Virus record (IMG/VR): IMGVR_UViG_3300036982_000164
Coordinates: 1 to 28,177 of that record
DNA length: 28,177 nucleotides
Reading direction: 5' to 3' (one strand)
From: a virus
Lineage: Duplodnaviria > Caudoviricetes
In this document: one piece after another, positions 596 through 19,560 of the stretch
How the letters are laid out: each line of letters starts with the position of its first letter
How positions within the stretch are numbered: position 1 is the first letter of the stretch
The notes under the pieces: generated by a model
Seen by the model: the letters and a program-made list of their open reading frames with translations, nothing else
The model's database searches: none
What the model was told of the DNA's origin: nothing
Position numbers and translations under genes: made by a program

Positions 596-628
596 AAAAA
601 AGGGTGGGCAATTAATGACCCCACCCCT
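596..628 (-). terminator. Intrinsic terminator after the MCP gene and its frameshift extension
   Basis: mRNA AGGGGUGGGGUCAUUAAUUGCCCACCCUUUUUU: GGGUGGG/CCCACCC stem plus U tract. Confidence 0.8.
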
Positions 629-631
629 CAA

Positions 632-718
632 TTATTGTGATTGTAAATTATCACCATTTTGACCCATCAATTCATCTAAGTTTTCACTCAGTAGAAATTG
701 TGGGTTATCTATGGGTTT
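632..718 (-). other. -1 programmed frameshift cassette and 26-aa C-terminal extension of MCP
   Basis: Slippery A_AAC_CCA (718-712) directly before UAG, 6-nt spacer, hairpin 705-662 with GAAA tetraloop; -1 frame reads IDNPQFLLSENLDELMGQNGDNLQSQ* ending at 632. Confidence 0.75.
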
Positions 719-1752
719 ACAATGCTAACGCAATTCACATAGTTAACACCTGATAACTTATCTCCAGCCTCATAGATGTCAGTTGGAAGAGTAACAATCT
801 TACCAGTAGCAGTTACGATAACAGAAAGGTTACCACAATCATCTTTCAATGTTAGGTCAACTGGTACACCAGCTGGTGTGAAAGCAATTGTACGAGCATA
901 ACCAGCACCAACAGATGGAGTGAAATTTGAGTTCCACTCAGCAAGGTTATAAGATAACCACTGAATTGCTCCAGCAGTAGTCACCAATGCGTGAGTTTGG
1001 TCACCTTGAGCAGCAGCTACACGAGAGTCATAAGCAAAACCAAAACCATTTTGTTGGCTGATAGCTAACAAATCAATACCTGAGTTAGTGCAACATCCAG
1101 CCTTAACTGCATTAGCATATCTCTGCATTGCTGCACCACCAAAAGCAATTGGTGCTGCTGGGTAGTTAGCCATTGTTGTTGCTTGTTGGATATCAGCAAG
1201 AGCAAATGGGTTAACTTCATTACCAGCATTGATTGTATTTACTTCGATGCAGTCACCATCCATTGTGAAGAAATTTTCAACATCTGTACCCCAAGTACCA
1301 ATAGCAGCTACTGCTTGAGTAGCAGCAACAGATGCTACTTTGCGGTCAATCACATCCATTAGTCGCATAACTGACTCAAGGAAGTAAACATTGTTATCTT
1401 GGCAATGACGAGCAATATCTGCTCCTGAGATTAACTGAGATGCTTGGTAAGTATCTGTAGTCTCAAGGGTGTATGTTTCAGTAGAATCACCATATACATT
1501 AGTAGCAGAGCAGTTCATAATATCTGCACCAGCATCTACTTCTGTTTCAGGTAATCGTTGAATCCATCGTGCTTCAATTGTGCGTAGTTTACCACCACCA
1601 GCAGAAACTTGTTGACGAATTAATTTTACGTTCTCAGGTGAGTTAAGATACTCAAGAAAAGGTAATGACTCACGTTGACCAACCTCAATGAAGAGTTGAC
1701 CAAGTGGTGCTTGAATGTTTGGACATTCGGAAAGTATACGAGAAATTGACAT
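709..1752 (-). CDS. Major capsid protein
   Basis: 347 aa; follows portal, head morphogenesis and scaffold genes; has its own leader and terminator; size fits an HK97-fold MCP. Confidence 0.8.
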   Translation of the reverse strand: MSISRILSECPNIQAPLGQLFIEVGQRESLPFLEYLNSPENVKLIRQQVSAGGGKLRTIEARWIQRLPETEVDAGADIMNCSATNVYGDSTETYTLETTDTYQASQLISGADIARHCQDNNVYFLESVMRLMDVIDRKVASVAATQAVAAIGTWGTDVENFFTMDGDCIEVNTINAGNEVNPFALADIQQATTMANYPAAPIAFGGAAMQRYANAVKAGCCTNSGIDLLAISQQNGFGFAYDSRVAAAQGDQTHALVTTAGAIQWLSYNLAEWNSNFTPSVGAGYARTIAFTPAGVPVDLTLKDDCGNLSVIVTATGKIVTLPTDIYEAGDKLSGVNYVNCVSIVNP

Positions 1753-6025: not shown

Positions 6026-6682
6026 TTATTTATGGATTATTGAAAGACCACGACCCTCAGGTGTGTTCAAAGTTACTGCTTTGTATCTGTAATTATTCAT
6101 AAATTTTATTAGCTTCTTAGGTGCTTCTAAATGAATAGTATCGTGATAAACGATAACACCACCTCTACTAACTAACTTATCAACTAATCTAAATTCAGGT
6201 AGAATAGATGCCCAAGAATGGTCACCATCAACAAATATCAAATCAAAGTGAGCAGTAGGTAATTTCTTCAATTCAATGTGTGAGTTACCTAATATGAAAT
6301 CAATTGACTTACCACCCTCTTTCATATACAACTTAGTTGCTGGTGTACGATAATCATTGATATCAATACCAACATATTGACCTCCTTGAGGTAGTGATTT
6401 AATAAGTGCTTGAGATGTTTCACCCTCAAATACTCCAATCTCTAAAATGGTCTTGTACTTTGACATCTTAACAAGTGATGCTAAAAACTCACCAACTTCT
6501 ACTTCAGAGTTCCATTCGTGTCTTGCAACTTCTTTGAATGTAGCAGTAGTAACAATCTCAACAATTGGAGAATCATCAATTAACTCTACAACAATTGGTG
6601 TATCATTAATGACCTCTTCAACTAATTCTGTAGTAGTTTTCTTAGGTCTTCCTTTCGGTTTTTTGGTAGTAGTGTCTTTCAT
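6026..6682 (-). CDS. Class I SAM-dependent methyltransferase (Methyltransf_24-like O-MTase)
   Basis: ILEIGVFEG, VGID, DLIFVDGDH and GGVIVYHD motifs; N-terminal KPKGRPKK. Confidence 0.85.
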   Translation of the reverse strand: MKDTTTKKPKGRPKKTTTELVEEVINDTPIVVELIDDSPIVEIVTTATFKEVARHEWNSEVEVGEFLASLVKMSKYKTILEIGVFEGETSQALIKSLPQGGQYVGIDINDYRTPATKLYMKEGGKSIDFILGNSHIELKKLPTAHFDLIFVDGDHSWASILPEFRLVDKLVSRGGVIVYHDTIHLEAPKKLIKFMNNYRYKAVTLNTPEGRGLSIIHK

Positions 6683-7632
6683 TTGTTCACGTATTTTTGA
6701 CCTATGATTCGGTCTATATGAAATTGATGTGTTTTGTTTTCTTTCTTCATCATTACTCTTAGAAGTCTCTCAAGCCATTCAGTATAGAATCTTGATGTAT
6801 AATTACGACCACCATAATATGATTGGAAATAATAGTTATCTGTTACCTCTTGAAATGATAAACCACGAACTGGTGAGAAATGTATAAAACCACTCTCTGA
6901 TTGTTTATCACCTACCTTATCTCCATTCTTGTATGATGGGTCGTACTTAGTCATAGCCAATGCAACATTCATATAGAGTTCATCAGGCTGACCATTACCC
7001 CATTTGCTTCTTAGCTTCTTCAATGGCAATTGATTGGTGGTGTATAGTATTCGCATCACACCAAATAAATCTTTAGCCTCTTTGCTCTTCTTGATGTATT
7101 GAATGCTGCTATTGATGGCTGGTAATATAGCATCACTTTCTAATTTGAAATGCTCCCATACATCATCACAATATGCCCAAACCATTGATGGGAAATCACG
7201 ACCTAAACCAATAGTATGATATCCCAAGCAATGGCTTATGTAGTGCCTCTTGGTACTTACTAAATCATCAATGAGTGGCTGAATGTCTTTAAGGCAAAGA
7301 GCATCAACATCAAGATATACATTGTGTTTAAAAGGCAGATACTTATATAGGGAAACCTTCAACATTGCTGGGTCTAATTTTCCATCAACATAGAGGTCAG
7401 AATTTTCTATTTCATTAATTGAATCAACATACTTATTAATATCATATGTTGCTCCATTGCACTTATTAATATCATCAACAAAGAGTGCAATCTTTACTGA
7501 TGGTGAATGATACTTAATTGAATAGGCAAGGTTATATGCTGCTTGGTAGTATCCAGCCTTGCCAAAAGCAAATAGTACCACACCCTCAGAAGAAGGTGTG
7601 GCAATATCGTTAGTTGTTAACTCCTCACTCAT
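6679..7632 (-). CDS. GT-A fold (GT8-like) glycosyltransferase
   Basis: Y..AYNLAYSIK, YLDVDAL (DxD), NSS, PDE..MN and FIHF motifs; likely start MSEEL at 7632 in a TAATG overlap with the tail tube stop. Confidence 0.75.
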   Translation of the reverse strand: MSEELTTNDIATPSSEGVVLFAFGKAGYYQAAYNLAYSIKYHSPSVKIALFVDDINKCNGATYDINKYVDSINEIENSDLYVDGKLDPAMLKVSLYKYLPFKHNVYLDVDALCLKDIQPLIDDLVSTKRHYISHCLGYHTIGLGRDFPSMVWAYCDDVWEHFKLESDAILPAINSSIQYIKKSKEAKDLFGVMRILYTTNQLPLKKLRSKWGNGQPDELYMNVALAMTKYDPSYKNGDKVGDKQSESGFIHFSPVRGLSFQEVTDNYYFQSYYGGRNYTSRFYTEWLERLLRVMMKKENKTHQFHIDRIIGQKYVNK

Positions 7633-8171
7633 TATCCAAAGATACCAGCTGGTGCTGTAAACTGAGTCGGAATCTCTTTTTGTCTCCAAGAAAACGTAAC
7701 TTCATAACGCTGAAGTTCGTTATTCTGCTCAGGGATGATGAAGTTAGCAGATGTTGTGATACCTACTGGTGGGTCGATGTATATAACCTTACCTGAATCA
7801 CATAAATAAGCCATAATCCAACCTACTTTTTGTTGGTTTAATGAGTTATAGAATGTGTTATTTTGGTCAGTTACGTTAGCATCGTAAAGAGTAGCAGTTC
7901 TATCTTCGTTGATTCTAATTTGAGTTCCACATCCTACTGGTGAATCCACCTGAATAGGTGAACCAGCTGGTAATGAAAAACGAATATCTTCAACTAATAC
8001 TGCATCACCACTAATAAGCATTTCTTCAATCTCTGCTGGTTGTGTTGGGTCAACTAATGTTGCTCCACAAGCACCGATGATAATAGCGGAAACTCCGCCA
8101 AGTTTATACTCTCCACAAGCGACTAAGTCGTGAGTTTCAAGTCCAGTTTCGCAATATGAGGCGCAGCCCAT
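7632..8171 (-). CDS. Tail tube (major tail) protein
   Basis: 179 aa, beta-rich, GGV near N-terminus and YEVTFSW near C-terminus; has its own promoter and a leader shared with MCP. Confidence 0.65.
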   Translation of the reverse strand: MGCASYCETGLETHDLVACGEYKLGGVSAIIIGACGATLVDPTQPAEIEEMLISGDAVLVEDIRFSLPAGSPIQVDSPVGCGTQIRINEDRTATLYDANVTDQNNTFYNSLNQQKVGWIMAYLCDSGKVIYIDPPVGITTSANFIIPEQNNELQRYEVTFSWRQKEIPTQFTAPAGIFG

Positions 8172-8256: not shown

Positions 8257-9933
8257 TTAAAATTCGTAATACAAATTAACTGAATCTTGAGTAGTGATTC
8301 TATTTAAGTCTTGAGTGAGCAAGAATGGTTCATCTGAGTTATCTAATATAGATGGTAAGCAGTTAGCATCTGCTTCACTACATTGAACCTTTACTACCTT
8401 ATTCTCTTTCTCAACTAAGTCAATATTGAATGAGCCTAAGTATGTATCAGCATCTGCCCAATCAATAGATGGAAATGCATTATCTTGAGGAAACATCAAT
8501 ACACCATTGACATAGCAATTGTCATAGTAGAAGATGGTAGAGAGAAAGTCAAGTACATACTCAGGCAATCTGCCAAAGTGATACGTCCATTGTTTTACTC
8601 TATTGACATAGTTAGCAGTCCACTTACCCGATGCATAACGAAAGGTATTAGCATTGGTCACGTATTGTGCCTTAGACCTTTTACCTTCTATTCTAATCAT
8701 TGGTAAGAATGAACTACCACCAAATGCAAAATTGAATTGGTCTTGAGCATTACAACCTTCTATCTTAAAGTATTTACAACTATCATTATAGTCACCAATA
8801 GATAGAATATCAGAGTATTTATTCCACGTAATACTTGAATCATCAATACCTATATAAACTTGTGATATACAACATAAGCCAACACCAGCAGCAGTTCCTT
8901 GAAAAAAGAAATTTAATCTCATTCCGAATTCAATACTTGGACTTCCAGCAGTAATTGCAATAGTTTGAACACCAGTTGCACCAATTGGATATTGTACTTG
9001 ATTATCTCCTATTTGAGCATAGATAGCTATGTTGCTTACATTTATAATATTTATTTGAATGTAGTATAAATTACCTTCACAGAATTCTGAATCATTTGTT
9101 AATGATACCTCACCATCTCCAGTAGGCATTGTAATACAAAATTCATTACCAATATCATAAATAGCATCCAATGTAAAAACATCCCAACTTGGTACACCAT
9201 CTCTCGTTGGTGAAAATAAACCATTCTTAACAAAAAATTGTGAGCAAGTATTAGTACAGAAATCTGCAATAGCTAACCTATAACAACCTTCATTAACTTC
9301 AACATCTGTTAAACTAAATGCAGTAGTTATCTTGTTTCCTTTAAGAGTAAATACTGGTTGAATTACATCAATCGTCTCCAATGTTTCTGCATCAACAATA
9401 CCAATTTTCATTTGAGAATTAGATGCTAAACCTTCTACTTTAATACTACTTGCAATAATGCAACCTTGCCACCCATTTGTAGTTGTATTAAAAATAACAC
9501 TAAGTTCATTAACATTAATTGTTGGATTAGCAAAATACAAAGTATAAGTACCAGCTATTGTTATCTCATAAATAGTAGAGTAATCCATTGTTACACTCAA
9601 TGTACCTTCATCTAATGATGCAATAGTAAATGTTACTGAGTATAATTGAAATGGATATTGTGTCCTATAATAAAGTGCATAATACCCAGCCTCAAAAACA
9701 TTGGTACTACATATATTGCCATTAGTAACATTGTCACCCCATCCACCACTATCACTATCATAAAGGTATAATGGTAAATCTTGACAAGGTGATGTCTCAA
9801 CTTGAAAAAATATTTGGTCATTAAAGTCTACCAATTGTTTGTAGTCTGAACTTCCACACTCTTCACAAGGTGTTACTATTTCATCTGTTTGACGAAATAT
9901 AATAGGCTGATTTGGTATTGAAGTAAAACTCAT
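8257..9933 (-). CDS. Tail/baseplate protein with probable beta-sandwich (CBM-like) inserts
   Basis: 558 aa, second gene after tape measure; beta- and Cys-rich; C-terminal FLLTQD..ITTQD..NL motif. Confidence 0.6.
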   Translation of the reverse strand: MSFTSIPNQPIIFRQTDEIVTPCEECGSSDYKQLVDFNDQIFFQVETSPCQDLPLYLYDSDSGGWGDNVTNGNICSTNVFEAGYYALYYRTQYPFQLYSVTFTIASLDEGTLSVTMDYSTIYEITIAGTYTLYFANPTINVNELSVIFNTTTNGWQGCIIASSIKVEGLASNSQMKIGIVDAETLETIDVIQPVFTLKGNKITTAFSLTDVEVNEGCYRLAIADFCTNTCSQFFVKNGLFSPTRDGVPSWDVFTLDAIYDIGNEFCITMPTGDGEVSLTNDSEFCEGNLYYIQINIINVSNIAIYAQIGDNQVQYPIGATGVQTIAITAGSPSIEFGMRLNFFFQGTAAGVGLCCISQVYIGIDDSSITWNKYSDILSIGDYNDSCKYFKIEGCNAQDQFNFAFGGSSFLPMIRIEGKRSKAQYVTNANTFRYASGKWTANYVNRVKQWTYHFGRLPEYVLDFLSTIFYYDNCYVNGVLMFPQDNAFPSIDWADADTYLGSFNIDLVEKENKVVKVQCSEADANCLPSILDNSDEPFLLTQDLNRITTQDSVNLYYEF

Positions 9934-11933: not shown

Positions 11934-14926
11934 TGGTATCTTGAGTCAACTGGATTACTATATCTTGTTTTAGATTGTCTTAGGTCTTTCCTCAATCCTT
12001 TTAATTCAGCCTCCATTGTTTTAGAGTTCAATGTAGCATTAACATTAACACCCATCTCTTTAGACTTTGAGTTAAGCATATAGTTCATCAATGCTGGTCT
12101 TACATACCTTTCATTGATTAGCCTCTTAAATGCCTCTGAGGATTGATTTAATGCATTCAATTCTCTTCTGTGGGCACTTGACTGCTTTCGATTAACAATG
12201 TACTCTCCTTGCTCTGCTTCTAATAATGTGCCTCCTTCACTATGTCTCTTACCACCAACTACTCCACCCTTCTCAAACTTAGGTATAGGTTGACTGGCAA
12301 TGGCTGCTATCTGAATTGCACCAGCAACACCTATGATAGCAGCAAGAATTGGATTTGCTACATTGGCTGCAATCTGTTGAGCAACTTGTATGGTTGCTTG
12401 GAATAGTGCAAGTGCCTTATCATTTTGTGCTTGTTTGGTTTTCTCTTTTGCTATTGCTGCTTGTGTTCTTTTTTCAAGTGCTGCTCTTTCTTTTATCTTA
12501 TCACGTTCTAATCCACTTCCATCATTGATAGCTTGTAATTCTGTTTCACTTGCAGCAGTTATATCTGCTACTCTTTGCTCTGATGCTTGTTTACTTATAT
12601 CATTAATACTTGAGAATACACTAACTACTGCATTGGCATACTCAAATGCTTTGTCAATTCTTTTTTGTTGTTCATCATCTAACTTTGCAGTTGTTTCAGC
12701 ATTAATTCTAATTATCTCTGCATTGTATGCCTCCTCACCTAATAGTTTCTTATCAAGTGCATTCTTAGCTTTTACACCCTCATCTTCAATCAACTTAACC
12801 CGTTGCTCATATGTTGATGTACCCAATGTTACTGCTGCTTGTGCCTCAGCATTAGCAATATCAATTCTTTTGTTTGCCTCCTCTGCTCTTGCTTGAGTTA
12901 TCTTAGTCTCTGTTTCTGCATCAATTAATGCTATGTCATTCTTTAATTTCTTTTGTGACTCTATATCAGTCTTAGCATTAAGAGTTAATGCTGCTTTACG
13001 TGCATTAGCATCTGCATTAATTATCTCCTCTGTAAGTTGAAGTGATACTTCACCTTGTGCCTTACGTAGTTCAAGGATTTGAAGACTTAACTCTTTCTCT
13101 GCTATGATTGCTGAATTAGATAAGGTTTTCTTTTCAGCAATTGCATTGGCATCAATACTATCTATTGCTGCTTGTAGTTCTTGTTTGTCTTTTATAGATG
13201 CCTCTGTTTCTTTCTTAGCAACATCTGCTCTCTTATCTACAAGTGCTAACTCATTGGCAAGTGATGTGTCACCTTGTGTCTTTAATGTCTCTAATCGTGT
13301 TAACTCAATTGATGCTAATCTTTTTGACTCATCAAGTTTTACTTGCTGGATGTCTCTACCTAACTCTGCATTGATTCTTGCAATGGTAGCAGCCTTGAGT
13401 TCTTCATTCTTAATTGATGCACTTGCTTCTTGCTTTTCAATTGCTGCACTACTTTTCAATTGTGCAATTTTATTCTTTAATGAATCACCTTCAATTGCAG
13501 TAGTTTTTAATATGCCTTGTTGTGCAATCTTGAGTCTTTCATTAGCAATATTGTTAGCAGATTCTTTTGCTCTGTTTTTTCCATCTACCTCTGCTTGTAC
13601 TTCAATTGTTTTTATTTGACTTTGAGAGATTAGATTCAATGATAATATTTGGTCATTAAGATTCTTTTGGTCATCAATCAATGTTTGTGATGTTAATGTA
13701 CCATCTTTCTTTCTTTCCTTCTGTAACTCTTGAAACTTATCATATAGTTCAGTTTCTGATTTCTTCAGGTCTTCATTAGCCTTTGCTATGGCTGAACCCC
13801 TCTCATTGAATGCTATGATATTATCAGCAGCAGATTGAGATAGCTTACCATTAGCCACTAACAATTTAACCTGAGCATTGGCTAACTTAGTTTGAGCCTC
13901 AGCACCAGCACTTGCCAAGCTATCATAAGCATCTTGCAATGCCTTTGCATCTTCTGCTGCCTTCTTTGATTTCTCAGATGATTCGCCAAAACTCTCTACC
14001 AATTTAGCAATAGCAAAGATTGCTATACCTATTCCAGTTCCAAGTAATGCTGCTCTGAATAATTTTAATTTTGTTGTACCAGCATCAACTACGAAATTAT
14101 AACCTTTCTGAGCAATTGCATAAACACCAGTCTTCTTTGCTTGTTGCTCAAGTAGTATGGCTCTTGCTTGTTCTAATGCACCAGTGATAGCCATTATCGC
14201 ATTGAGCCTTGTTAAGGTCTGAGTTAGTTCTTCATTCTCAGTTCCAAAGGCTGCACTTGCTCCTTGAACTGCTTGGAATGCTGCACCTACTAATTGTACA
14301 TTCTGAACTACTGCATTGAATCCACGACCCTTCTCAACGAATGAATCCACTTGTTGGTCAGTTTCAAAGATTGCTCTTTTTAGTTTTGTTGTTTCAGCTA
14401 TTAGGTCTTTAAACTCCTGAGTATCTTGCTGACCAGCAATTGCCAAATCATATAGCTTGTCTTCAAGTATACCTATTCTACTTGATGCAGCATCAGTTGA
14501 CTTAGCATATGCTTCTACTGCTCTATCTGCTTGTGTAATGGCTGCCTTGTATTCACCTATTGCCTTTGCTATGTTATCAAACTCTTTAGTGGTTGTTTTA
14601 CCAGCAAGTGCAAGTTCTCTAAGTTGGTCTTCTAATTTAGCAACATCATCAGCAGTATTGGCTAACTTCATTACTTCAGCAACAACCTTAGGTAAGGTCT
14701 TAACAAGTTGTAATGATTCTACATTAATGTCCTTTAATCCCTTCTTAACCTTCTCACCAGCAAATGCACCAGCCATTGATGAACCCATCTTCTTGAATGC
14801 ATCAGCACCCTCCTTACCAGCCTTCTCTGCTGAGTCACCAATCTGTTTATTGGCATTGATAATCTCATCAGTTACACCTTTAAGTGATGCTGCCTTTGCT
14901 TCATATTCAATGTATACTACTGCCAC
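11924..14926 (-). CDS. Tail tape measure protein
   Basis: 1000 aa, Ala/Lys/Glu-rich helical, hydrophobic segments, C-terminal GAIQIAAIASQP.PKFEKGG...HSEGG..EAEQGE; GTG start. Confidence 0.9.
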   Translation of the reverse strand: MAVVYIEYEAKAASLKGVTDEIINANKQIGDSAEKAGKEGADAFKKMGSSMAGAFAGEKVKKGLKDINVESLQLVKTLPKVVAEVMKLANTADDVAKLEDQLRELALAGKTTTKEFDNIAKAIGEYKAAITQADRAVEAYAKSTDAASSRIGILEDKLYDLAIAGQQDTQEFKDLIAETTKLKRAIFETDQQVDSFVEKGRGFNAVVQNVQLVGAAFQAVQGASAAFGTENEELTQTLTRLNAIMAITGALEQARAILLEQQAKKTGVYAIAQKGYNFVVDAGTTKLKLFRAALLGTGIGIAIFAIAKLVESFGESSEKSKKAAEDAKALQDAYDSLASAGAEAQTKLANAQVKLLVANGKLSQSAADNIIAFNERGSAIAKANEDLKKSETELYDKFQELQKERKKDGTLTSQTLIDDQKNLNDQILSLNLISQSQIKTIEVQAEVDGKNRAKESANNIANERLKIAQQGILKTTAIEGDSLKNKIAQLKSSAAIEKQEASASIKNEELKAATIARINAELGRDIQQVKLDESKRLASIELTRLETLKTQGDTSLANELALVDKRADVAKKETEASIKDKQELQAAIDSIDANAIAEKKTLSNSAIIAEKELSLQILELRKAQGEVSLQLTEEIINADANARKAALTLNAKTDIESQKKLKNDIALIDAETETKITQARAEEANKRIDIANAEAQAAVTLGTSTYEQRVKLIEDEGVKAKNALDKKLLGEEAYNAEIIRINAETTAKLDDEQQKRIDKAFEYANAVVSVFSSINDISKQASEQRVADITAASETELQAINDGSGLERDKIKERAALEKRTQAAIAKEKTKQAQNDKALALFQATIQVAQQIAANVANPILAAIIGVAGAIQIAAIASQPIPKFEKGGVVGGKRHSEGGTLLEAEQGEYIVNRKQSSAHRRELNALNQSSEAFKRLINERYVRPALMNYMLNSKSKEMGVNVNATLNSKTMEAELKGLRKDLRQSKTRYSNPVDSRYQWQ

Positions 14927-15212
14927 GTTGTTGAGATTTTATGAACGATTCAAATTTAGTCAAAAATAAGTCAACATCACCACTCATAAGTTGATTGTAT
15001 GCAACCACATCACCCTCAACAATTGTCATTACTTGATTTTTAATTCTCGTGGTCGCTTCACTCGCTCTGTATCGTGGACTCCATCTAAGTGGGTCAATGC
15101 TTTTATCAGGTTGCGTTGTGCCTCCACGTTGTAATCCCATAATTTCTTGAAGTCTTCTGCTGACATAGACATTAAGGGTATTAGCGGCTCTATGTCCAAA
15201 CGATAAAAAAAA
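14907..15212 (-). CDS. -1 frameshift extension of tail assembly chaperone (gpGT-like, about 257 aa in total)
   Basis: T8 run at 15212-15205 (GAU UUU UUU UAU); the -1 frame is open from there to 14907 and contains the 77-aa ORF. Confidence 0.7.
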   Translation of the reverse strand, partial: FFLSFGHRAANTLNVYVSRRLQEIMGLQRGGTTQPDKSIDPLRWSPRYRASEATTRIKNQVMTIVEGDVVAYNQLMSGDVDLFLTKFESFIKSQQRGSSIH

Positions 15213-15679
15213 TCGTGCGACCCCTCCTTACACATCGCATCAAATACTTCAAGTTTCTCTTTGTGAATATCGTTGTTGATTATTGTTGGGTCTTCATCAT
15301 CACGTATAATCCAAGTGGCTGCAATGTTGAGTAAGATGTCACGATGGATGATGGTGTCTTGTCTCTCACGAATAATGTGTATGTAGGTAGCAACCAATGC
15401 TGCATTCTTTGGATTGGTTAGACCAGCAGCCAATGCTTTCTCCATACCTTCCAGTATGCCTTCCATCTCACTACCACTTATACCTGAACTCAATCGTTCA
15501 AGTAGTGCCATTGACATACTAAATCGTTCAAGTGGCATATTGGTCTCTTTCGGGAATCTAAGATAGTTGTACCCATCCTGAGTGAATACCTTCACCAAGT
15601 TGTAACTTGATTGTTTTTGATTCCATCTATTGAATCGATGCCACAACTTGACTGGCATTAATTTTCTGAATAACTTCAT
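15029..15679 (-). CDS. Tail assembly chaperone (gpG-like)
   Basis: 216 aa, upstream of tape measure, with slippery site and overlapping -1 ORF. Confidence 0.7.
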   Translation of the reverse strand: MKLFRKLMPVKLWHRFNRWNQKQSSYNLVKVFTQDGYNYLRFPKETNMPLERFSMSMALLERLSSGISGSEMEGILEGMEKALAAGLTNPKNAALVATYIHIIRERQDTIIHRDILLNIAATWIIRDDEDPTIINNDIHKEKLEVFDAMCKEGSHDFFYRLDIEPLIPLMSMSAEDFKKLWDYNVEAQRNLIKALTHLDGVHDTERVKRPRELKIK

Positions 15680-18037: not shown

Positions 18038-18832
18038 TTAATCTAATCCTACGAATGCCTTTAGTGGGTAGAATACAAGTGAGTTTCTATATCCTCCTTC
18101 ATGTGTTGGTGTGATAGGTGTTACCCCATGAACATTTCTCCACGCAGGATAAACAAGTATAGAATTGTCTTGCTGTCCTATGGTTGCTCCATAATCTGGT
18201 ATATGTAGGTCACCGCCTTTAGAATTAAACTTCTTGCAGATGATTACATTAACCGCCCCTACTATGTTACCAGTGTCTCTGTGGAATGGTGCTGATATAT
18301 TATAGTTTGAGATTGAACTGGTGAATAGGTTTCCAAACTTCCATTTGTCGGGTACACCTTTGAATAGTTCTACTTGTTGTTCGTATTGCTTAGGTAGTAT
18401 TTCCTTTATTAGTTGCTCACTTTCTTTAGCAAGTAATAACATTGCCTTGATAAATGTTTGTGCAGTCTTAACTGAGTGAACACTTGATATGGTTGCGTAG
18501 TTTCTTCTCATGTGTGGTTTTGGTGGCACACCACCTAAAATACAACTCCATTGATGTACTTCATTTTTATATTTCCATATTCCTTTTTTTTCATCCCATC
18601 CATCAGCTTGTCTTCTATTTAACATTGATTTAGGCACATTCTTACTTCTTAATTCTTTATCTGCAAGGTCTGCAAGTTTGCACATCTTATCAGGCATCTT
18701 TGTTAGATAGAATCCTATTGGTTCTCCATCTGCATAAAATATACTATCTTCTGTTATATTAGGTTCTTTGTAATCGCAATTTTCACCTATTTTAACATTT
18801 TGCTCTACTTTGATTAAGTCTATACGTTTCAT
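18038..18832 (-). CDS. TET/JBP-family 2OG-Fe(II) dioxygenase
   Basis: N.N..APFHRD (HxD), GGDL..PDY, distal HGVTP, RNSLVFY (RxS). Confidence 0.85.
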   Translation of the reverse strand: MKRIDLIKVEQNVKIGENCDYKEPNITEDSIFYADGEPIGFYLTKMPDKMCKLADLADKELRSKNVPKSMLNRRQADGWDEKKGIWKYKNEVHQWSCILGGVPPKPHMRRNYATISSVHSVKTAQTFIKAMLLLAKESEQLIKEILPKQYEQQVELFKGVPDKWKFGNLFTSSISNYNISAPFHRDTGNIVGAVNVIICKKFNSKGGDLHIPDYGATIGQQDNSILVYPAWRNVHGVTPITPTHEGGYRNSLVFYPLKAFVGLD

Positions 18833-19560
18833 TTGACTATTTTATTATAATGATTAGCCAATGCTTTTATATCTGTTTTCATATCTATTCTTTCACCTTT
18901 TCTTTGAAGTGTTATATAGGGATTCCATTCGTAGCACATTTTTTTTGCAGACTCTTCATCTTTTTTTTGTTTGTACATATCATTAAGTCCTCCAGCGTTA
19001 CTACCAATATCAGGACATGAAAACCAATATTTGTTAAACCTCAATATTCCATTTCCATTTTTAATTGTCTGTAGGGCAAAGTCTCTATCCTCTTTAAGAT
19101 TGAACTCAGACCTATAATTCCAATTAATATTTTTAACATTCATTAAGATACAAACCTCTGCAAATTTTTTATTAATTGAGTAATTTGTTTTTTCGTGCCA
19201 TGCGTGTTGAGTATAGTTAATACCTATAATTTCAAATGGTAATGACATTGCTTTTTTTAATATATCAAACCAAATAGTAGCATCTTTTTTTATTGTCTTT
19301 CCATTATAAATTCCAAATGAAACTACATCATCATCGCAGATTATAACCCATTCATAGTTATTTGTTCTTGCATAATCAAGCATAAAATTACGAACATATC
19401 CAATACCTTTATCGTTTTCTACAATACATACTTTATTTGGAACTTGATATTTATCAATTTCTTGTGGTTCAATAAAGTGCTTTACCTCTATTCCAGCATC
19501 TTGAAATAGTTTGTATGTTTTGGTTTGTGGTCTACCTTTAGTGGGTATAAAGCAAATCAT
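18829..19560 (-). CDS. TET-associated GT-A glycosyltransferase
   Basis: FIPTKGR, GIGYVRN, CDDD, KEDRDF and N.GG motifs; ATGA-coupled to the TET gene. Confidence 0.8.
   Translation of the reverse strand: MICFIPTKGRPQTKTYKLFQDAGIEVKHFIEPQEIDKYQVPNKVCIVENDKGIGYVRNFMLDYARTNNYEWVIICDDDVVSFGIYNGKTIKKDATIWFDILKKAMSLPFEIIGINYTQHAWHEKTNYSINKKFAEVCILMNVKNINWNYRSEFNLKEDRDFALQTIKNGNGILRFNKYWFSCPDIGSNAGGLNDMYKQKKDEESAKKMCYEWNPYITLQRKGERIDMKTDIKALANHYNKIVK

Follow-up and report, generated by a model that had tools for sequence, protein, structure and literature searches.

Sequence comparisons suggest that a short C-terminal peptide, shared, in a family of uncultured freshwater phages, by an inferred tail-tip protein and a predicted recoded long form of a putative major capsid protein, is probably a docking plug that mounts one small receptor-binding fibre at the tail tip and on a minority of the capsid subunits. 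The pattern common to both copies is three repeats of eight residues, each with two hydrophobic residues, T/S and E/Q, then a turn, and the consensus of this tag reads hhT[EQ]xGxx, three times. Both carriers are encoded by a 28 kb virus record estimated to be ~80% complete, the whole of which (28,177 nucleotides) was analyzed and is referred to here as the window. The minus strand of the window holds a siphovirus-like gene set (terminase, tape-measure-like gene and portal), and DNA near-identical to the window occurs in sediment and freshwater runs. The features that bear on the two copies of the tag are collected in Table 1.

Table 1. Positions in the window of the two carrier genes, the tag and the putative recoding signals
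Feature	Position	Strand	Remarks
Putative major capsid protein, short form	709..1752	minus	347 aa; assigned by gene order
Inferred tail-tip component	8257..9933	minus	558-aa all-beta multi-domain protein; second gene after the 1000-aa tape-measure-like gene
Three-repeat C-terminal tag of the tail protein, FLLTQDLN RITTQDSV NLYYEF	8260..8325	minus	E 8e-15 with the combined profile (profile includes it)
Slippery heptamer A AAC CCA, abutting the TAG stop	712..718	minus	X XXY YYZ form in register
Stem-loop, predicted frameshift stimulator	662..705	minus	begins 6 nt past the heptamer
26-codon -1 extension with TAA	632..712	minus	tag portion at 635-697
Terminator-like hairpin and T run just past the stop of the extension	596..628 (approximate)	minus	read by eye from the sequence

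The carrier proteins and their common peptide

The labels capsid and tail tip are given to the two carriers because of gene order. The order leading to the 347-aa gene is portal (phrog_7376), a 314-aa gene, a 120-aa gene and a 271-aa scaffold-like gene, and the 347-aa protein itself had no Pfam, PHROG or cultured-phage match, any HK97-type identity being putative and read from gene order. The 558-aa protein likewise had no Pfam or PHROG match. Its AlphaFold model has a mean pLDDT of 81, and Foldseek returned only low-TM beta-sandwich matches (TM ≤0.22 by query), the best viral one being a protein of Polaribacter phage P12002S (E 2e-11, TM 0.21); a Dit with inserted carbohydrate-binding-type domains and a hub are candidate identities. 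Relatives of the putative capsid protein were found in 77 viral loci and 138 protein clusters, and relatives of the 558-aa protein in 36 viral loci and 754 protein clusters; among cultured phages there was no tblastn match to either window protein.

The tail tag and the -1 capsid extension are both present in the sequence as the sequence-only reading had quoted them, and its count of 7 identities over 18 residues from the F was confirmed. The significance of this single pair is modest. A local score of 37 between the tail and capsid peptides was reached by 61 of 20,000 shuffles against the last 36 residues (p about 0.003), by 25 of 3,000 shuffles against the whole protein and by 41 of 200 against the six-frame window (p ~0.2), although the pair is the top non-self match among 1,013 window segments. 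The resemblance is accepted because the family profiles match: hhalign of the profiles of both peptides gave 95.6% with E 1.2e-8 over 21 columns. With a tail-only HMM run over 67,440 segments, all of the top non-tail matches were capsid extensions (best E 8e-5; the extension of the window E 0.1), and with an extension-only HMM the tail C-termini came directly after the extensions, at a best E of 8e-4; the matches of at least 8 bits did not include the tail peptide of the window itself. Judged by these profiles, the resemblance of the two peptides is real; the similarity of the single pair is distinguishable from shuffled sequence locally, and is not distinguishable at the scale of the whole window.

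The peptide is also kept in relatives of both proteins, with a tag in 64 of the 79 distinct capsid ends and, by pattern, in 117 of the 119 tail homologues of at least 500 aa (it is visible by eye in the other two). The tail copy is kept even in phages that lost the capsid copy. An alignment of the residues NC in register had been claimed as part of the likeness, and this holds for the Cys, which lies 13 residues ahead of the tag in 52 of the 60 ends of the frameshift class, all 4 readthrough ends and 114 of 117 tail homologues, and is Gly in two tagged capsids (L067 and L071). The Asn was rejected as part of the motif, as the tail homologues have D at this position in 104 of 117 cases and N in 8, and its match is put down to chance. 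In the AlphaFold model of the 558-aa protein, the linker at residues 512-534 has a pLDDT under 50 and the tag about 55, as would be the case for a disordered linker and a peptide that folds on a partner. No third carrier of the tag was found in the window or in the family loci (L001-L189), where the generic tag profile matched 57 tail proteins, 61 capsid proteins and 1 cut capsid fragment, and no other sites.

Several further features of the window were observed among and beside these genes. The structural proteins at 709-1752, 7632-8171 and 8257-9933 (all minus) are Cys-rich, and the family of the 558-aa protein has 10 invariant Cys; a disulfide-stabilised virion is possible. At 14907-15679 (minus), a 216-aa ORF ahead of the tape-measure-like gene is overlapped by a 77-aa ORF in the -1 frame, a layout of the kind seen in tail assembly chaperone G/GT frameshifts. 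At 18038-19560 (minus), a Tet_JBP oxygenase (PF12851) lies beside a TET-associated glycosyltransferase (PF20691), followed by a ParB-N gene, and these genes are likely a DNA base-modification cassette. At 6026-7689 (minus), within the structural cluster and between the 179-aa gene and the portal, are genes for a 336-aa DxD protein (phrog_1903) and a methyltransferase; both are kept in the relatives checked, and a role in virion modification is possible.

Recoding at the end of the capsid gene

The 347-aa ORF ends GTA AAC CCA TAG, and the -1 frame runs for 26 further codons, IDNPQFLLSENLDELMGQNGDNLQSQ, to a TAA at 634-632. Among relatives, 104 loci have a full capsid end (2 cut ones were left out), corresponding to 79 distinct ends, which divide into 60 with the tag in the -1 frame, 4 with the tag in frame after TGA and 15 without a tag. 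The slippery site follows this division: AAACCC[AG] abuts the stop in 54 of the 60 frameshift-class ends, with CCCG at that place in 3 and one codon earlier in another 3, and among the 15 tagless ends the heptamer occurs at the stop in 1 and AAACCCA two codons before the stop in 3. The segment 652-718 folds at -20 kcal/mol (z -4.0), a value matched by none of 200 shuffles. When the window was compared with 47 of 53 distinct relatives (48 sequences in all, with the structure taken from the window), two-sided changes were seen in 12 of 19 pairs of the stem-loop, and the covariation score was 0.416 vs 0.168 for shuffled and at most 0.229 for slid alignments; the RNAalifold consensus keeps only 5 basal pairs, 4 of them compensatory. 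The -1 frame is constrained as well, with its second codon position the least variable (160 vs 386 and 435), also when differences are counted between close pairs (201 vs 607 and 874). The slippery site, the stem-loop and the 26-codon frame are shown, by comparison of sequences, to be conserved together, and a long capsid form is very probably made through a -1 slip. The earlier argument that the tag lends independent support to the frameshift was borne out.

The stop that separates the two frames is not considered an assembly error because an independent contig (possibly from the source sample) is identical to the window over 581-820 and because 59 further distinct ends show the same layout. 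A hairpin lies behind the TGA in 4 of 4 readthrough ends. Hairpin z-scores do not tell the classes apart, with 15 of 15 tagless ends also under -2, because in these ends the terminator enters the folded window; in relatives without the extension, a terminator-like hairpin sits close behind the capsid stop. No Shine-Dalgarno-like upstream stimulator was found in any of the 79 capsid ends.

When 74 capsid proteins were placed on a tree (root at L071, many nodes weak), the 4 readthrough ends grouped as a single clade with support 0.999 that lies within the frameshift ends, and parsimony requires 11 changes, corresponding to one switch and about ten losses. The peptide has outlived a change of recoding mechanism, which suggests that it is the peptide, and not the mechanism, that is kept by selection. 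An altered genetic code was rejected for the readthrough clade, as TGA ends other genes there and the aligned genes are without internal stops; by this comparison UGA is an ordinary stop in the clade. One readthrough end (L034:7511-7582) has an ATG directly after the capsid TGA, where the others have ATA, and the tag might there also arise as a free 24-residue peptide.

The extension measures 25-28 residues across relatives, too short for an Ig domain, and an Ig-like extension of the T3 and A2 kind was rejected on this ground; against PHROG it matched nothing under E 0.25. Capsid forms fused in frame were likewise rejected, as the four longer homologues inspected (P0141, P0148, P0152 and P0239) differ in their N-terminal start, and the tag was absent from all 10 capsid homologues inspected for such a fusion. 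No further recoded tag was found at the 11 other gene ends of the window.

The tag in unrelated phages and a candidate fibre partner

A search of 1.84 billion representatives with the tag profile gave 17 matches, 9 in the tail family and 8 in unrelated proteins, with no recognisable capsid protein among the 17. Some of the matches outside the family hold several copies of the tag. Two such proteins (P0244 and P0253) consist of three to six copies with little else recognisable, six stretches in the case of P0244, which had no tblastn match in cultured phages; they are candidate multi-fibre scaffolds. A pattern scan recovered 57 unrelated viral loci. They hold 44 distinct carriers, and in 22 of these no more than 10 residues separate the tag from the C-terminus. 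In other unrelated carriers, the tag lies in a loop of hub-like proteins, which we take to be P22 gp10-like. One hub family has the tag as an optional insert within a single loop (L195, L217, L239, L250, L259, L273, L317 and L321), and many members are without it. A candidate Dit protein with a tag (P0256) was rejected, as hhalign aligned the tag alone. The Atlas gave no usable match to the tail tag, and neither the tag profile nor that of the partner N-domain described below found anything under E 0.09 among solved structures, T4 chains included. The cultured phage phiKp24 has the tag (E 0.007) at the C-terminus of gp314 (L478:1483-2094), a DUF7941 virion protein that adjoins the fibre cluster and may link DUF7941 filaments to depolymerase fibres. 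The tag is not confined to the phage in which it was noticed and recurs as a generic module in many phage proteins.

The candidate partner comes from relatives that reach past the left end of the window. Between a tail-terminator-like gene and the endolysin, a region missing from the window, these loci encode a protein of 150-320 aa with the start MAG[VI]K[IV]TDL and a variable remainder, and they do so in all three capsid classes. The protein has a conserved N-domain of ~45 residues ('KISELP') and an exchangeable head, and the partner profile gave 127 matches in L001-L189, all of them to the MAG-start gene. The neighbouring tail-terminator-like protein is ~180 aa and stands alone in two loci (L014:12809-13354 and L070:12761-13303), and in three others (L002:12792-14768, L022:12748-15675 and L049:12676-15405) it carries a variable fibre-like extension of 370-800 residues. 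Tandem partner paralogues with the same N-domain occur in L003, L015, L043 and L074, and their heads differ in L003 and L074, so that one tag could mount two receptor-binding proteins.

A monomer model of one partner (L005, residues 44-168) superimposed by VIA on avian reovirus sigmaC (2jjl; Z 10.0, rmsd 2.7, 118 residues aligned), and its head also resembled the Dettilon tailspike (6f7k; Z 8.8) and the receptor-binding heads of lactococcal phages and Listeria phage PSA (Z 6-7); Foldseek found nothing under E 0.001 for the partner protein. By this model the C-domain has a beta-barrel fold like that of trimeric viral receptor-binding heads, with a trimer predicted. The N-domain had no Mtd_N, DUF685 or Phage_tail_C match in Pfam, these being the nearest named clusters in the Atlas at 0.89-0.92, a level often reached by chance, and phrog_19691 ('virion structural protein') matched 24 of 46 N-domain members with E up to 0.1. 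The same N-domain opens fibres or structural proteins of phiKp24, phiST, S-TIM5 and phiEt88, and 5 of these matches are annotated phiKp24 tail fibres. A hydrophobic, signal-peptide-like leader precedes the KISELP-type domain in eight loci of unrelated phages (L207, L213, L227, L236, L241, L246, L244 and L233).

Tag and N-domain are neighbours in phages unrelated to the window. Among the 44 unrelated carriers, which are not phylogenetically independent, a KISELP-type domain begins within 200 nt past the stop in 15; of the ORFs in these loci that lack a tag, 6 of 626 are followed by one in this way. The comparison is partly circular because the partner profile was grown on loci where adjacency was counted. 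A family-only profile, free of unrelated loci, found the N-domain in 7 of the 57 unrelated tag loci, and in MW202577 a 66-aa tag ORF stands immediately ahead of a fibre gene. A joint pattern of half-tag and KISxLP recovered 104 loci (76 distinct, with full tags in 40 by the strict pattern), none of the 76 with the two elements fused, as expected for two binding partners. In the control family of presumed P22 gp10-like proteins, tag and partner were unassociated at the strict threshold of 15 bits (p 0.72 and 1.0) and, over all 114 loci, at the threshold from the decoy set (p 0.16); p was 0.04 only in a post hoc subset, the 19 loci that have 8.5 kb of upstream DNA (5 with both, 1 with tag only, 3 with partner only, 10 with neither). 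No partner was found within the available DNA of 24 of the 44 tag loci, and no tag was detectable in phiST, S-TIM5 and phiEt88, three of the five phage genomes that have the N-domain. In the lineages that lost the capsid tag, about ten in number, the partner gene was kept in those checked. The sequence-only reading had proposed that one accessory (a fibre, decoration protein or modifying enzyme) is recruited to both head and tail, and a candidate is now at hand in a fibre with a conserved N-domain, encoded behind tag genes in unrelated phages; the modifying-enzyme option found no support.

Fibre docking, alternative readings and known systems

In the proposed mechanism, a fraction of ribosomes would slip -1 at the last Asn-Pro codons, with the stop codon and hairpin assisting, and produce the long capsid form, with one clade making the same capsid peptide via UGA readthrough. 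Each tail-tip subunit and each long-form capsid subunit would then offer one tag, and the same fibre would be mounted at both places. From gene neighbourhoods, we infer that the partner is the MAG[VI]K[IV]TDL protein, and the tag likely binds its N-domain. The three repeats of one tag could each touch one subunit of a trimer, which would solve the mismatch of one chain meeting a threefold partner; this match of repeats to trimer is a hypothesis to which we give an even chance. Recoding would hold the tagged subunits, and hence the head fibres, below one per capsid protein, and such fibres would assist a first, reversible adsorption. Display of the fibre on the head is somewhat favored, and it appears dispensable because 15 of 79 relatives lost the capsid copy.

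Alternatives differ in how much of this scheme they retain. The long capsid form could be made and the tag could be a protein-binding module, with a different partner such as the tail-terminator-like extension, a decoration protein or further tag copies. Relatives do encode further fibre-like proteins, proteins that are nearly all tag repeats exist (P0244, with its six stretches), and the three of five N-domain phages lacking a detectable tag fit such a reading; it is nevertheless unlikely, given that tag genes and KISELP genes are strongly linked as neighbours in unrelated phages and that the MAG-start gene is found throughout the loci of relatives that reach that region. A fibre docked at the tail only, with the tagged capsid serving assembly in few copies (e.g., at one vertex) or soaking up fibre and no fibres on the head, would agree with a capsid tag lost about ten times while the tail tag was retained. 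Retention of the extension under two recoding mechanisms argues against this, as does the fact that known recoded capsid extensions reach the virion, according to the available text of PMC5009743, and we regard a dock confined to the tail as quite unlikely.

It is very unlikely that the tag is the acceptor or recognition site of a modifying enzyme, for which the 336-aa DxD protein (6679-7689) and the methyltransferase (6026-6682) would be candidates. Both genes lie between the tail and portal genes and position 3 of the repeat carries Thr/Ser, but in relatives Ala, Leu, Gly or Tyr also occur there, unrelated carriers are usually followed by a fibre gene and not by an enzyme gene, and the 336-aa protein has no Pfam match. 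Finally, the region past the capsid stop could be kept as an RNA element, with the open -1 frame and the likeness to the tail as by-products, a reading in keeping with a covarying hairpin that spans most of the extension and with a pairwise match that is not significant window-wide (41 of 200). We hold it to be highly improbable, as the readthrough clade keeps the same peptide in a different frame, the peptide fits a generic phage module, the second codon position is the least variable and the slippery site travels along with the extension.

The preferred reading, a plug for a small fibre, can be widened to a tag-and-catcher pair that is widespread among tailed phages. Such a pair would consist of a 21-24-residue three-repeat peptide that any virion protein could carry, be it at the tail tip, in a hub loop, on a filament protein or on the capsid, and a ~45-residue N-domain that grips it. 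Recoding at the capsid gene (-1, or UGA in one clade) would set the number of head fibres, the same fibre would be carried on the tail tip, and loss of the slippery site and extension would switch head display off. We consider this wider scheme as evenly balanced between right and wrong. The role of recoded capsid extensions is mostly unclear, and the tag offers a concrete, testable function for them, with two recoding mechanisms serving one peptide. It would also provide a candidate rule for fibre attachment in many uncultured phages, based on a short tag missed by gene callers and a partner domain without a Pfam family; if true, receptor-binding proteins and their attachment sites become readable from genomes. 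The pair further offers a small natural peptide-to-trimer coupler, for which phiKp24 is a cultured model.

Among the titles and abstract openings covered by the literature search, no description of the tag was found. Systems with related elements are known. In the T4 baseplate, a single chain of gp7 engages the gp9 and gp10 trimers at their N-terminal domain; the profiles of tag and partner are without sequence match to the solved T4 chains. A conserved N-terminal attachment part with an exchangeable head is described, in the available portions of the sources, for phiKp24 fibres, T4 gp10-like docking sites and F-type pyocin side fibres (PMC9700779; bioRxiv 10.64898/2026.02.24.707460), and the phiKp24 fibres carry the same N-domain as the partner here. 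The dock in these systems is a folded domain or a coiled-coil shaft, and a portable C-terminal peptide on capsid and tail tip is not described in those portions.

Docking of a peptide to a domain has been proposed for the head-to-tail DUF7941 filaments of Chimallivirus (Goslar gp22/gp23 and phiKZ gp126/gp127), in a paper whose available text does not mention 'frameshift', 'readthrough' or 'motif' (bioRxiv 10.64898/2026.04.21.720040). The structural proteins of the window, both carriers included, have no DUF7941 match, which only phiKp24 gp314 has. Head fibres that aid first attachment are represented by phi29 gp8.5, the spikes of RcGTA and the capsid fibres of phage 7-7-1, as far as the accessible part of the source describes them (PMC12796354). 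The fibres of 7-7-1 are placed at the vertices and carried by a linker protein, with no fibre protein assigned, whereas the anchor predicted here is a recoded extension of the capsid protein that also ends the tail-tip protein.

The closest parallels are in recoded coat genes. In the text available from PMC5009743, a minor, longer coat protein arises by recoding where the coat gene ends, in T7/T3 (gene 10A/10B), in Lactobacillus phage A2 and in the Listeria phages A118 and A500 (-1) and PSA (+1); in the Listeria phages the shift takes place at a proline codon beside the stop or a 3' RNA structure, and the addition to the coat protein is an Ig-like domain in T3 and A2 and a non-Ig extension in T7. 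The recoded minor long form is the feature in common with these phages, here predicted from sequence. What differs is the addition itself, which in the phage of the window would be a 26-residue linear motif shared with a second virion protein, and the route to it, which in one clade of its relatives would be readthrough of UGA.
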